Positions 42,015 to 46,018 of a DNA stretch of 64,000 nucleotides are shown here, in pieces. The notes under the pieces were generated by a model. The model had not been told where the DNA came from and did no database searches. It saw only the letters and a program-made list of their open reading frames with translations. Position 1 is the stretch's first letter. Every line of letters begins with the position of its first letter. Origin of the DNA: Escherichia coli (GTDB lineage: Bacteria > Pseudomonadota > Gammaproteobacteria > Enterobacterales > Enterobacteriaceae); the NCBI RefSeq assembly GCF_048403405.1, contig NZ_CP183129.1. The stretch is one strand, 5' to 3'. The translations under genes were made by a program, and so were the position numbers.

Positions 42015-42622
42015 GATTGTCTGCTCCCCTGTCTTGTTATAGGAGCAGTATTCAGGAATAAAAACATTCATTAAAAGAATTAGTCGTTATCGCACAGATG
42101 ATTTTATTCTTAGCAAAAAAGCGGCAAAGGAAAGATTAAATATGCAATTACACCCACTCTGACAATTCAGTAAGTTACTGCACTTCATTTTTATTAATGC
42201 ATAAACAAGCAGAACATAATGTCTTTTATTTTATTAACAGCAATACATATAATGAAATCATTATATTCACATTGCATATATAACTGTATCATTCTCAATC
42301 AACCACATAATACATTCACATAATGTATATAATCCATATTTGTGCCTAGAACATATTTTTAATATGTAATTAATTGACAAACTAAATCACATCTAAATAC
42401 AATATATAAAACAAAATAACTATACAAACCAAACACACAAACACTTAACATATGAACTACATAAAAGATTACGCAGTCGTATCCCCGTACCTGAAAGCCC
42501 CTTATTTTTCAGCTATCAGTAATTTTTAACACTTAAAAATTAGCATCTGTCTGTGCCAGAGATTACGTCTCTGCGGGCATCGTTGTGCTTGTAGTATAAT
42601 AAATAAAATGGAGTGTCATTAA

Positions 42623-43294
42623 GTGGATAAGGTTTTAGATTCAGCCATCCTTTCTTCGGCAAATAAAAGAAAGGGTATCCTTGCTATTGGCGCACATCCT
42701 GACGATATAGAATTGGGCTGTGGCGCGTCGCTTGCTCGTCTTGCGCAAAAAGGAATTTATATCGCAGCCGTGGTGATGACTACCGGCAACTCTGGCACAG
42801 ATGGAATAATCGATCGCCATGAAGAATCGCGCAACGCCCTAAAGATATTAGGGTGCCACCAAACTATTCATCTTAATTTTGCTGACACCCGCGCGCATTT
42901 GCAGCTCAATGATATGATTTCCGCCCTGGAAGACATCATTAAAAATCAAATTCCTTCTGATGTTGAAATCATGCGGGTATATACCATGCATGATGCCGAC
43001 CGCCATCAGGATCATCTTGCTGTTTATCAAGCTTCAATGGTTGCCTGCCGAACTATTCCACAAATTCTCGGCTACGAAACCCCAAGCACCTGGCTTTCAT
43101 TTATGCCTCAGGTTTTTGAATCCGTTAAAGAAGAATATTTCACAGTCAAACTTGCTGCATTAAAAAAACATAAAAGCCAGGAACGACGCGATTATATGCG
43201 TCATGATCGCCTGCGTGCAGTTGCACAATTTCGCGGGCAACAGGTCAATAGCGATCTGGGTGAAGGCTTTGTAATTCATAAAATGATTCTTTGA
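42623..43294 (+). CDS. yaiS: PIG-L / LmbE-family deacetylase YaiS
   Basis: ORF with the LmbE-type motif AIGAHPDDIELG. The only in-frame start before that motif is the GTG at 42623 (GGAG about 9 nt upstream); start uncertain. Confidence 0.8.
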   Translation: MDKVLDSAILSSANKRKGILAIGAHPDDIELGCGASLARLAQKGIYIAAVVMTTGNSGTDGIIDRHEESRNALKILGCHQTIHLNFADTRAHLQLNDMISALEDIIKNQIPSDVEIMRVYTMHDADRHQDHLAVYQASMVACRTIPQILGYETPSTWLSFMPQVFESVKEEYFTVKLAALKKHKSQERRDYMRHDRLRAVAQFRGQQVNSDLGEGFVIHKMIL

Positions 43295-43303
43295 GCAAAT
43301 TGC

Positions 43304-44500
43304 ATGAAAACCTGGATATTTATCTGTATGTCCATAGCAATGTTGCTATGGTTTTTAAGTACGCTAAAACGTAAACCCAGTCAAAAGAAAGGCTGTATTG
43401 ACGCCATTATACCTGCTTATAACGAAGGCCCGTGTCTGGCACAGTCACTGGATAATCTGCTGCGTAATCCTTATTTTTGCCGGGTAATTTGCGTAAACGA
43501 CGGCTCCACGGACAATACCGAAGCGGTCATGGCGGAAGTCAAACGCAAATGGGGCGACCGCTTTGTTGCCGTCACGCAAAAAAATACCGGTAAAGGTGGT
43601 GCGCTGATGAATGGCCTCAATTACGCCACCTGCGACCAGGTTTTTTTAAGTGATGCCGACACCTATGTTCCGCCCGATCAAGACGGAATGGGCTATATGC
43701 TTGCAGAAATAGAGCGCGGTGCTGATGCCGTAGGCGGCATTCCCTCTACTGCGTTGAAAGGCGCGGGTCTGTTACCGCACATCCGCGCGACCGTAAAGTT
43801 GCCGATGATTGTTATGAAGCGCACGCTACAGCAGCTCCTGGGCGGCGCACCGTTTATTATCAGCGGTGCCTGCGGGATGTTCCGTACTGATGTATTGCGT
43901 AAGTTCGGTTTCTCTGATCGTACTAAAGTCGAAGACCTTGATCTCACCTGGACATTGGTGGCAAACGGCTATCGTATTCGGCAGGCGAATCGCTGCATCG
44001 TATACCCACAGGAATGCAACAGCCCGCGTGAGGAATGGCGTCGCTGGCGGCGTTGGATTGTGGGCTACGCGGTCTGTATGCGCCTGCATAAAAGGCTTTT
44101 ATTTAGCCGCTTCGGTATCTTCAGTATATTTCCTATGCTGTTGGTTGTGCTTTATGGCGTTGGGATTTATCTCACTACCTGGTTTAATGAATTCATCACC
44201 ACCGGGCCGCATGGTGTGGTGTTGGCAATGTTTCCGCTTATCTGGGTCGGCGTAGTTTGTGTTATTGGTGCTTTTAGCGCCTGGTTTCATCGTTGCTGGT
44301 TGTTGGTGCCTTTAGCACCGCTTTCCGTTGTGTATGTATTATTAGCTTATGCCATCTGGATTATTTATGGACTTATTGCCTTTTTTACTGGACGCGAACC
44401 TCAGCGCGACAAACCCACCCGCTATTCCGCACTGGTGGAAGCGTCAACCTCTTATTCCCAACCTTCTGTCACAGGAACTGAAAAACTTTCTGAAGCTTAA
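43304..44500 (+). CDS. yaiP: Family 2 glycosyltransferase YaiP with C-terminal membrane segments
   Basis: 398-aa ORF with GT-A motifs (VICVNDGSTDNT, FLSDADTY) followed by several hydrophobic helices. Confidence 0.9.
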   Translation: MKTWIFICMSIAMLLWFLSTLKRKPSQKKGCIDAIIPAYNEGPCLAQSLDNLLRNPYFCRVICVNDGSTDNTEAVMAEVKRKWGDRFVAVTQKNTGKGGALMNGLNYATCDQVFLSDADTYVPPDQDGMGYMLAEIERGADAVGGIPSTALKGAGLLPHIRATVKLPMIVMKRTLQQLLGGAPFIISGACGMFRTDVLRKFGFSDRTKVEDLDLTWTLVANGYRIRQANRCIVYPQECNSPREEWRRWRRWIVGYAVCMRLHKRLLFSRFGIFSIFPMLLVVLYGVGIYLTTWFNEFITTGPHGVVLAMFPLIWVGVVCVIGAFSAWFHRCWLLVPLAPLSVVYVLLAYAIWIIYGLIAFFTGREPQRDKPTRYSALVEASTSYSQPSVTGTEKLSEA

Positions 44501-45059
44501 TGTTAAAGAGAAAAATATTCAGATTGCAGACCAGGTAATTATTGATGAAACTGCAGGTGAAGTTGTTATCGGCGCGAATACCCGTATTTGTCACGGTGCC
44601 GTTATTCAGGGTCCGGTAGTGATTGGCGCAAACTGCCTGATAGGTAATTATGCGTTTATTCGTCCTGGCACAATAATCAGCAATGGCGTAAAAATTGGCT
44701 TCGCCACCGAAATTAAAAATGCGGTTATTGAAGCGGAAGCAACGATTGGTCCGCAATGCTTTATTGCCGACTCGGTAGTTGCAAACCAGGCATATTTGGG
44801 CGCACAAGTACGAACCAGTAATCATCGTCTGGATGAACAGCCCGTGTCTGTTCGAACTCCCGAGGGAATTATCGCTACCGGATGCGATAAATTAGGTTGT
44901 TATATCGGGCAGCGTTCACGCCTTGGCGTACAAGTTATTATTTTGCCTGGGCGAATTATTTCCCCGAACACGCAACTTGGCCCGCGCGTGATTGTAGAAC
45001 GTAATTTACCTACCGGAACTTATTCACTCCGACAAGAACTTATCCGTACAGGAGATTAA
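44349..45059 (+). CDS. yaiX: Hexapeptide-repeat (left-handed beta-helix) acyltransferase-like protein YaiX, uninterrupted; start uncertain
   Basis: Repetitive [LIV]-G-x-x-x-x hexads (VVIGANTRICHGAVIQGPVVIGANCLIGNYAFIRPGTIISNGVKIG...). The ORF begins 150 bp inside yaiP with no ATG/GTG right after the yaiP stop, so the true start may be internal or non-canonical. I recall K-12 has this gene disrupted by IS2; no IS here. Confidence 0.7.
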   Translation: MPSGLFMDLLPFLLDANLSATNPPAIPHWWKRQPLIPNLLSQELKNFLKLNVKEKNIQIADQVIIDETAGEVVIGANTRICHGAVIQGPVVIGANCLIGNYAFIRPGTIISNGVKIGFATEIKNAVIEAEATIGPQCFIADSVVANQAYLGAQVRTSNHRLDEQPVSVRTPEGIIATGCDKLGCYIGQRSRLGVQVIILPGRIISPNTQLGPRVIVERNLPTGTYSLRQELIRTGD

Positions 45060-45060
45060 A

Positions 45061-45834
45061 ATGATAAAACGGACGTTATTAGCGGCGGCCATTTTTAGCG
45101 CATTACCCGCTTATGCCGGGTTAACTTCCATTACCGCGGGCTACGATTTTACCGATTATTCTGGCGATCATGGCAACCGTAATTTAGCGTATGCTGAACT
45201 GGTGGCGAAAGTTGAAAACGCAACGCTGCTTTTTAATCTTTCCCAGGGGCGTCGTGATTATGAAACTGAACATTTCAATGCCACTCGCGGTCAGGGTGCG
45301 GTCTGGTATAAATGTAATAACTGGCTGACAACCCGAACGGGTATTGCCTTTGCGGATAATACGCCGGTCTTTGCCCGCCAGGATTTTCGTCAGGATATTA
45401 ACCTGGCACTGTTGCCAAAAACGCTTTTCACGACCGGTTATCGCTACACTAAATATTACGATGATGTCGAAGTCGATGCCTGGCAAGGCGGCGTATCACT
45501 CTATACTGGCCCGGTGATCTCCAGCTACCGCTATACCCATTATGACTCCAGCGATGCAGGTGGTAGTTACAGCAATATGATTTCCGTGCGTCTGAATGAC
45601 CCGCGCGGCACTGGTTATACGCAACTATGGCTAAGCCGCGGAACAGGCGCTTACACCTATGACTGGACGCCAGAAACACGCTACGGCAGCATGAAGAGCG
45701 TCAGTTTGCAACGTATTCAACCGCTGACTGAGCAACTTAATCTCGGGCTGACGGCAGGTAAAGTGTGGTACGACACCCCAACTGATGATTATAACGGTCT
45801 GCAATTTGCAGCCCATCTGACCTGGAAATTCTGA
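45061..45834 (+). CDS. yaiO: Outer-membrane beta-barrel protein YaiO
   Basis: 257-aa ORF with signal peptide MIKRTLLAAAIFSALPAYA and a C-terminal aromatic residue (...LTWKF); starts 1 bp after the yaiX stop. Confidence 0.92.
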   Translation: MIKRTLLAAAIFSALPAYAGLTSITAGYDFTDYSGDHGNRNLAYAELVAKVENATLLFNLSQGRRDYETEHFNATRGQGAVWYKCNNWLTTRTGIAFADNTPVFARQDFRQDINLALLPKTLFTTGYRYTKYYDDVEVDAWQGGVSLYTGPVISSYRYTHYDSSDAGGSYSNMISVRLNDPRGTGYTQLWLSRGTGAYTYDWTPETRYGSMKSVSLQRIQPLTEQLNLGLTAGKVWYDTPTDDYNGLQFAAHLTWKF

Positions 45835-45944
45835 TTGCTTCTGCCGCCCGCTATCCGGGGCGGCCTTCCCTGCCGATTAGCCCCCCCTTTCCTCTTTGTT
45901 TTCCGACCACATTCACCGGATAAATTTTATTCTCCAGTGTTATA

Positions 45945-45992
45945 TACTATAGGGGGGTATGTATTGACACATGGCATACCCCCCTATAGTAT
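45945..45992 (+). promoter_or_regulatory. frmRAB promoter/operator: long dyad with G6/C6 tracts (FrmR binding site)
   Basis: ATACTATAGGGGGG...CCCCCCTATAGTAT, a 14-bp perfect inverted repeat flanking TTGACA, about 30-70 bp upstream of the frmR ATG. Confidence 0.75.
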
Positions 45993-46018
45993 ATTGCGTG
46001 CAGATGATGAGGTGCGAA

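Follow-up and report, generated by a model that had tools for sequence, protein, structure and literature searches.

Layout of the yaiP-yaiX junction

The DNA stretch analysed here (the window; 64,000 nucleotides from Escherichia coli, NCBI RefSeq assembly GCF_048403405.1, contig NZ_CP183129.1) harbors the gene order tauA / yaiS-yaiP-yaiX-yaiO / frmRAB. This report concerns the junction between yaiP, encoding a family-2 glycosyltransferase (GT2), and yaiX, encoding a hexapeptide-repeat (LbH) protein, and the position at which translation of yaiX starts. A query covering the junction (44200-45100, 901 bp) showed 100% identity to strain K_EC180. All positions are window coordinates, and offsets such as -66 or +11 are relative to the first Trp codon of the sequence TGGTGG, at 44433. 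The main features are:

43304-44500, + strand: yaiP, 398 amino acids, family-2 glycosyltransferase (open reading frame (ORF) list and Pfam Glycos_transf_2)
YaiP residues 380-398: lineage-specific C-terminal tail
44498-44500, + strand: yaiP stop codon TAA
44367-45059, + strand: yaiX, best-supported coding sequence, 230 amino acids, consisting of a 22-residue enteric-specific extension, a Trp-Trp (WW) segment and the LbH domain
44367-44500, + strand: co-directional yaiP/yaiX overlap, 134 nt, with yaiX in the +1 frame relative to yaiP
44505-45056, + strand: LbH (hexapeptide-repeat) domain, Pfam Hexapep PF00132 at 5e-18 and LbH_EIF2B PF25084, predicted local distance difference test (pLDDT) above 95 in the AlphaFold2 model

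The frame of the LbH ORF is open from 44346 and ends with a stop codon at 45057-45059; it is uninterrupted in this window, and the K-12 copy is split by IS2. The original prediction, made from the sequence alone, had the ORF open at an ATG inside yaiP, and this ATG is indeed found at 44349; the overlap counted from it measures 152 nt and not the 150 reported. Further canonical in-frame starts are ATG 44367 and TTG 44376, after which the next is GTG 44619, inside the beta-helix. It was therefore correctly noticed that no ATG, GTG or TTG follows directly after the yaiP stop, where the yaiX frame reads AAT GTT AAA, and the hexad repeats do begin just past that stop, as had been stated: Pfam LbH matches run from residue 53 of the ORF, which corresponds to 44505. 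By chance alone, open +1 frames of about 50 codons are no rarity, and the evidence that this one is meaningful is that of the cross-species comparison.

Homologous loci and the ancestral junction

The loci compared were 15 from a species-level genome collection and nine obtained via exact-protein look-ups, and the search for YaiX homologs gave 526 hits. The cassette of genes for a PIG-L protein, a GT2 protein, an LbH protein and YaiO is kept across phyla, from Enterobacterales to Pseudomonas, Acinetobacter, sphingomonads and uncultured lineages. About 50 distant YaiX homologs (ca. 206 amino acids, ca. 50% identity) all begin with Met-Trp-Trp, aligned to the His-Trp-Trp encoded at 44430-44438 in E. 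coli, and in nine distant loci an ATG or GTG directly precedes the two Trp codons, giving MWW or VWW. A 14-nt overlap of yaiP and yaiX (ATGTGGTGGnnTGA) occurs in six distant loci (L011, L012, L013, L017, L018 and L019). There YaiP ends with KPTRYxxVVx followed by its stop codon, yaiX begins with ATG/GTG TGG TGG, and the yaiP stop ends at +11. The Arg codon of the KPTRY motif is AGG or AGA in all six, as it is in locus L014, so that a Shine-Dalgarno-like AGG lies 8-10 nt ahead of the yaiX start.

Two loci from the Candidate Phyla Radiation (CPR) have another upstream gene, no yaiP, and an intergenic Shine-Dalgarno sequence. As yaiX still begins with (M/V)WW in these loci, the Trp-Trp pair is a feature of YaiX and not a by-product of YaiP. 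The ancestral-type arrangement is still present in Pseudomonas, Acinetobacter, sphingomonads and several metagenome-assembled genomes (MAGs). A separate observation was made in L014, from a Sphingomonas MAG (near locus 3085), where the GT2 frame is shifted (offset 2) and has an unrelated C-terminus while AGG-ATG-TGG-TGG is intact; the shift is likely an assembly frameshift or a sign of a decaying yaiP.

The derived junction in Enterobacterales

The positions in the window that correspond to elements of the ancestral junction are:

44420-44422, + strand: Arg codon of KPTRY, ancestral Shine-Dalgarno site, now CGC; CGN in 14/14 enteric loci
44424-44426, + strand: ATT at the -9 site; ATG in Enterobacter L021, Superficieibacter L009 and Salmonella/E. 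bugandensis L020/L025
44430-44432, + strand: ancestral start position, CAC (His) in E. coli; CAC, TAC, CCT, CGG, GCA and others among enterics
44433-44438, + strand: TGG TGG, the Trp-Trp of the YaiX family, invariant in every locus examined, including the CPR loci
44441-44443, + strand: position of the ancestral yaiP stop (TGA), GCG in E. coli

Three losses are common to all 16 enteric-type loci: the start codon before WW, the AGG Arg codon and the yaiP stop position. The stop of yaiP is variable among enterics and is found at +17, +32, +50, +53, +68, +77 or +83. The YaiP Val codon inside TGGTGG is always GTG (9/9 lineages scored), and only one of 136 other four-fold-degenerate yaiP columns is invariant in ten representative enteric lineages. 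The invariance of WW in enterics indicates that this segment is still translated and selected, and the yaiX start must thus lie upstream of 44433. This excludes the starts chosen by the Prokaryotic Genome Annotation Pipeline (PGAP) as well as any start past the yaiP stop, and it contradicts the proposal of a non-canonical start after that stop, since the conserved Trp codons lie upstream of it and remain under selection. Some lineages have an ATG 6-12 nt before WW, made by YaiP TAT-Gnn, where E. coli and Citrobacter have ATT or ATA; the ATT at 44424 may be a relic or a near-cognate start.

Over 44367-44432 YaiP is strongly conserved, even to Pseudomonas, and the yaiX frame encodes the lineage-specific extension. 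Over 44433-44500 the four-fold third-position diversity of yaiX is about 0.7, equal to that of the rest of the gene, while the YaiP tail varies in sequence and length. Given this ordinary variability of yaiX past WW and the shifting yaiP stop, the YaiP C-terminal tail appears, from the sequence comparison, to be an unconstrained passenger, that is a read-through product.

Conservation of ATG 44367 and synonymous constraint

The ATG at -66 (44367) is present in 16/16 enteric loci, with the frame open to WW in all of them; in 11 or 12 of these loci no other ATG separates it from the preceding stop. The -66 ATG is made by YaiP Tyr/His355-Gly356 (TAT/CAT GGA), and both the wobble T of TAT/CAT and the rare GGA codon are fixed in 14/14 enteric loci. 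The equivalent codons in the six distant loci, CAC/CAT/TAC and GGA/GGC/GGT, vary freely. An internal control is provided six codons upstream by YaiP Tyr349-Ala, which makes ATG 44349; its wobble T is found in only 5/10 enteric lineages.

The yaiP codon alignment was scanned in windows of eight columns for normalized third-position (synonymous) diversity, giving 270 windows. The lowest value in the gene was found at the following block:

44366-44392, + strand: conserved synonymous block, TAT GGA CTT ATT GCC TTT TTT ACT GGA in yaiP, corresponding to yaiX codons 1-9 (MDLLPFLLD)

Its diversity of 0.28 compares with a minimum of 0.69 in the 247 windows upstream of the overlap. The constraint stops at 44366, with none further upstream, and over the remainder of the extension (44393-44429) the synonymous variation in yaiP is ordinary. 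The encoded yaiX codons 1-9 read M-D/E-L-L-P-F-L-L-D/E, or M-D/E-x-x-x-S-L-P-D in the Salmonella and E. bugandensis clade. When synonymous codons were randomized with the YaiP sequence kept, the probability of obtaining the ATG together with an open frame was 0.15-0.70 per lineage, with a product over ten lineages of 5e-6; this value, like the conservation probabilities, treats related enteric lineages as independent and its significance is thereby overstated. The gene-internal control at Tyr349 is not affected by this assumption. ATG and open frame are both present in only 1/6 distant loci.

RNAalifold predicted no pairs in 12 enteric sequences around ATG 44367, an Rfam E-value scan of 42400-46000 found no family, and a search for sigma-70-like promoters in 43200-45200 gave no site, so none of these offers another account of the conserved block. 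Several results of the comparison thus point to selection on ATG 44367.

Fold of the YaiX protein

The AlphaFold2 model of the 230-residue YaiX has a mean pLDDT of 88, with values of about 45 for residues 1-20, 78 for residues 21-30, 89 for residues 31-50 and above 95 for the beta-helix. The values rise from the WW codons onward, which puts the WW segment in the confidently modelled part. The new N-terminal extension is thus probably flexible according to the model, and a start at 44478 or later would delete a confidently modelled, conserved segment (residues 21-50). The best Foldseek match is the LbH domain of the C-terminal acetyltransferase part of Sulfolobus ST0452 (30-34% identity, template modelling score 0.7 on the query), followed by GlmU C-terminal domains.

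Initiation signals at the candidate starts

Shine-Dalgarno duplex energies and local structure were compared for the candidate yaiX starts and for the neighboring genes:

44349-44351, + strand: ATG within YaiP Tyr349-Ala (TAT GCC), +0.9 kcal/mol, no match
44357-44360, + strand: UGGA, weak Shine-Dalgarno-like motif before ATG 44367, spacing 5-6 nt
44367, + strand: ATG, -3.1 kcal/mol, weak local structure
44424, + strand: ATT, +0.4 kcal/mol, no match, more stable local fold (-18.1)
44478-44480, + strand: CTG, -4.3 kcal/mol, AGGA at 44473-44476 with a spacing of 0-1 nt
44500-44502, + strand: ATG of the sequence TAATG at the yaiP stop, third frame, opening an ORF of 12 codons that gives MLKRKIFRLQTR before a stop; not conserved
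yaiP start, for comparison: -1.9 kcal/mol
yaiO start, for comparison: -7.4 kcal/mol

Only ATG 44367 joins a Shine-Dalgarno-like match, a workable spacing and weak local structure. The UGGA motif is TGG plus a purine in 14/14 fully analysed enteric loci as compared to 2/6 distant loci. CTG 44478 is probably an internal Leu codon. The original prediction had proposed to look at orthologs of yaiX and for a clear ribosome-binding site before ATG 44349: conservation does span the overlap, and no clear site is found before 44349, only the weak one before 44367.

As a side observation, T TTT TTA at 44381-44387 forms a slippery-type heptamer for -1 shifting in the yaiX frame, which would move ribosomes to the yaiP frame. 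It is most simply explained as Phe-Phe in YaiP and Phe-Leu in YaiX; the Salmonella and E. bugandensis loci read TTC TTT ACC here and so lack the heptamer.

Public annotations and literature on yaiX

Four different yaiX starts are in circulation among public annotations. In most strains PGAP assigns a protein of 193 amino acids from CTG 44478, and in B2 strains/ST131 one of 174 amino acids from a GTG at the equivalent of 44535, a codon that is GTA in the window. Clusters with such downstream starts are P0009 (1845 members) and P0017 (1174 members). The KEGG version is the form of 236 amino acids from ATG 44349. The curated yaiX' pseudogene of MG1655 (b4579) begins with ATG GAC TTA TTG, the equivalent of ATG 44367, and with 382872 as the start of b4579 and 382739 as the end of b0363 in that genome, the overlap is 134 nt there as well. 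Prodigal-type calls also use ATG 44367 (cluster P0001, 230 amino acids, 1737 members), and the PGAP pseudogene fragment of K-12 begins at the equivalent of ATT 44424.

EcoGene (PMC3531124) reports that repaired K-12 yaiX' promotes clumping in a yaiP-dependent manner, which indicates that intact yaiX is functional. In a 2026 study (PMC13058169), overexpression of a 71-residue K-12 YaiX fragment gave multidrug resistance and higher virulence in silkworms, and a plasmid-expressed YaiX variant of 236 amino acids, taken from KEGG, had a weaker effect than the fragment. That construct probably carries six residues that native YaiX lacks. In the literature found there was no paper on the yaiX start or the yaiP-yaiX overlap, and the supplements on PIRT-seq have no entries for yaiP, yaiX, yaiO or yaiS.

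Proposed origin of the overlap and alternative explanations

We consider it likely that yaiX is a separate gene which is initiated independently at ATG 44367, inside yaiP, giving an overlap of 134 nt and a YaiX protein of 230 amino acids. The ancestral and the derived architecture, the invariance of WW, the synonymous constraint that sets in at the ATG and the conserved ATG with its open frame are direct observations from the alignments, and from these we infer that ribosomes most likely initiate at 44367 in vivo. In the ancestor the yaiX start would have been located just before WW, with AGG inside the KPTRY Arg codon and an overlap of 14 nt. The yaiX start codon, the AGG and the yaiP stop would all have been lost in the enterobacterial lineage, by which YaiP would have gained its variable and unconstrained C-terminal tail. 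A new yaiX start would have been established at the ATG provided by YaiP Tyr/His-Gly (TAT GGA), adding 22 N-terminal residues that are encoded, in the +1 frame, by sequence which also specifies a conserved part of YaiP. Initiation at this position would occur de novo, aided by the weak UGGA and a U-rich unstructured region, with no need for frameshifting or termination-reinitiation. The long overlap would then result from the loss of the ancestral start, Shine-Dalgarno sequence and stop.

Both frames of the overlap encode proteins with conserved homologs (GT2 and LbH), the internal yaiX start is conserved among relatives, and reduced synonymous change is detected in the yaiP frame. The conserved block most likely reflects selection that acts on the new peptide, the initiation region or both. 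With moderate confidence we regard the 134-nt overlap as a genuine dual-coding region, in which a peptide of 22 residues would have been overprinted, upon loss of the ancestral start, on the conserved, membrane-proximal C-terminal part of YaiP and the peptide and/or the initiation region would be under purifying selection across Enterobacterales.

Several points weigh against initiation at 44367. The Shine-Dalgarno motif before this ATG is weak, and the authors of PMC13058169 found none upstream of yaiX. The ATG sits within an actively translated ORF, by which initiation could be limited, and it is partly a by-product of the conserved Tyr/His-Gly residues of YaiP. The 22-residue extension is predicted to be disordered (pLDDT of about 45), PGAP picks other starts, and TTG 44376 and ATT 44424 are possible additional or alternative starts. 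The overstated significance of the lineage statistics, mentioned above, belongs here too, and no ribosome-profiling, start-site-profiling or N-terminal proteomic data for yaiX were found in the literature and supplements searched.

The suggestion that yaiX initiates inside yaiP with a long overlap is supported by the comparison, with the conserved start at ATG 44367 (134 nt) and not at ATG 44349. The latter would give 236 amino acids and an overlap of 152 nt, and we find it very improbable: it is the first ATG of the open frame in the window and the KEGG variant expressed in PMC13058169 starts there, but it has no Shine-Dalgarno sequence, the Tyr wobble T that creates it is kept in only half of the ten enteric lineages, and the constraint does not reach it. 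Most enteric loci, Citrobacter L006/L007 among them, also lack it, and many of these have a stop between its position and the ATG at -66. A start downstream of WW with an untranslated upstream frame (CTG 44478, CTG 44490, GTG at the 44535 equivalent in B2, or GTG 44619) would agree with PGAP and clusters P0009 and P0017, with the AGGA before CTG 44478 and with the GTG or ATG that some relatives have as the +45 codon. Such a start is nonetheless improbable. The AGGA lies only 0-1 nt from CTG 44478, and the +45 codon is CTG, GTG or ATG depending on the lineage, a pattern that fits a hydrophobic residue and not a conserved start. The conserved part of the protein already sets in 15 codons before CTG 44478; WW and the following segment are selected in every enteric lineage, with normal yaiX coding evolution, and would be deleted along with the confidently modelled N-terminal part, while the constraint at 44366-44392 would be left unexplained. 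Initiation at TTG 44376 or near-cognate ATT 44424 is quite improbable as well, even though TTG is found at -57 in most enteric loci, the -9 equivalent is ATG in L009, L020, L021 and L025, and the K-12 fragment of PGAP begins at the ATT. The TTG is missing in L020, L023, L025 and L026 and is a by-product of YaiP Ile-Ala (ATT GCC); the ATT lacks a Shine-Dalgarno sequence, lies in more stable structure and is ATA in several lineages. Neither codon explains why the constraint sets in exactly at the Tyr wobble T and GGA.

Supply of ribosomes from yaiP, by a +1 frameshift fusion or by termination-reinitiation at TAATG, had been proposed in the form of coupling or frameshifting and is extremely improbable. 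It would draw on the +1 frame of yaiX relative to yaiP, on the T-run TTT TTT A within the overlap (44381-44387) and on the TAATG at the yaiP stop. The ATG of TAATG is, however, out of frame and opens only the 12-codon ORF; E. whittamii has TAATAT at this position and other enterics end yaiP elsewhere. No GT2-LbH fusion was detected among the best 120 of the 526 homologs, the T-run is broken in L020, L023 and L025, and in the ancestral arrangement yaiP and yaiX are plainly two genes, with a Shine-Dalgarno sequence and a start for each. A frameshift would need no conserved ATG, and the need for coupling or frameshifting is itself undercut by the conserved ATG that yaiX possesses. We know of no mechanism by which reinitiation would take place 131 nt upstream of a stop codon. 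The possibility that ATG 44500 is the ancestral start displaced by a 1-nt indel was considered separately and rejected, as MWW is conserved upstream of the stop and this ATG is out of frame and not conserved.

Neighboring genes and related cassettes

Features flanking yaiP and yaiX are:

42623-43294: yaiS, PIG-L deacetylase
45061: yaiO start codon ATG

The yaiS gene of the window is a complete ORF of 223 codons whose product aligns end to end with a Salmonella PIG-L homolog; PGAP nevertheless calls yaiS of K_EC180 an incomplete pseudogene. In K-12, a CAG to TAG amber change at the equivalent of codon 43178-43180 shortens YaiS to 185 amino acids, and just past this point the opposite strand carries the annotated small gene ykiC. 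Together with the IS2 insertion in yaiX, the amber codon means that the K-12 operon carries two lesions.

The yaiX-yaiO junction (45045-45063) has a strong AGGAG Shine-Dalgarno sequence (-7.4 kcal/mol) within the end of yaiX, followed by TAA, a single A and the yaiO ATG. This classic tight coupling site differs from the yaiP and yaiX starts, whose signals are weak.

Some E. coli harbor a second, divergent PIG-L, GT2, LbH, YaiO cassette (L022, contig ABZNGZ010000040.1) with about 62% YaiX identity. Related entries are L010 and protein P0051, which is labelled plasmid-borne; P0050 is found on 55 contigs, and a near-identical copy of the divergent cassette is present in a MAG assigned to Ignatzschineria. 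The divergent cassette has the same relocated ATG at -66 and its yaiP stop at +83. These findings suggest that the PIG-L, GT2, LbH, YaiO cassette is mobile.

Significance and comparison with known systems

If the dual-coding interpretation is true, the overlap exceeds the maximum accepted in the 2008 survey (56 bp, PMC2478687) by a factor of more than two. Most long co-directional overlaps annotated in bacteria are errors, and yaiP-yaiX would be a traceable counter-example: the ancestral 14-nt junction, intermediates and the derived 134-nt state are all visible in living lineages, which allows the stepwise relocation of a start codon to be followed. For annotation, thousands of RefSeq E. coli YaiX entries (193 and 174 amino acids) probably lack some 37-56 N-terminal residues, including the Trp-Trp segment, and the 230-residue form is advised for expressing or repairing yaiX. 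The yaiSPXO cassette, with a deacetylase, a GT2 synthase, an LbH transferase and an outer-membrane barrel, has the appearance of an exopolysaccharide system that is tied to cell clumping and has received little study, and work on it will first need correct gene models.

In its hexapeptide repeats and predicted LbH fold YaiX resembles the stand-alone LbH acyltransferases, as represented by the C-terminal domain of GlmU and ST0452. Unlike these proteins it has no N-terminal nucleotidyltransferase domain and carries the WW segment and the 22-residue enteric extension instead; its role as a transferase is predicted.

The ancestral yaiP-yaiX junction is similar to short coupling junctions of the ATGA or TAATG type, with its 14-nt overlap and a Shine-Dalgarno sequence in the end of the upstream gene, and the same holds for yaiX-yaiO in the window. 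In E. coli, in contrast, the yaiP stop lies 131 nt downstream of the yaiX start, and since the TAATG supplies an ATG that lies in another frame and is not conserved, stop-start coupling cannot operate there.

Pallejà et al. 2008 (PMC2478687) surveyed 338 genomes and accepted no co-directional overlap of more than 60 bp as real, the longest genuine case being holD-rimI with 32-56 bp. Like holD-rimI, yaiP-yaiX is conserved across Enterobacterales with a genus-specific length. The ortholog-length rule of the same survey would flag yaiP-yaiX as a misannotated extension at both the 5' and the 3' side. Different from the flagged cases, both extensions are fixed throughout the Enterobacterales and the new 5' part shows synonymous constraint in the host frame; in view of these lineage-wide extensions and the signature of selection at the new start, yaiP-yaiX is probably a real long co-directional overlap. 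In the model of Fonseca et al. 2013 (PMC3887535), a unidirectional overlap forms when a start or stop codon is disrupted and another takes its place, and yaiP-yaiX follows this model as a same-strand, out-of-phase terminal overlap with loss of the yaiP stop and of the yaiX start. The K-12 pseudogene yaiX' (b4579) is the same gene with the same start as ATG 44367, the window carrying the uninterrupted allele and K-12 the one with IS2. The start is thus already present in the curated K-12 record, and the process fits a known model and involves no new mechanism.

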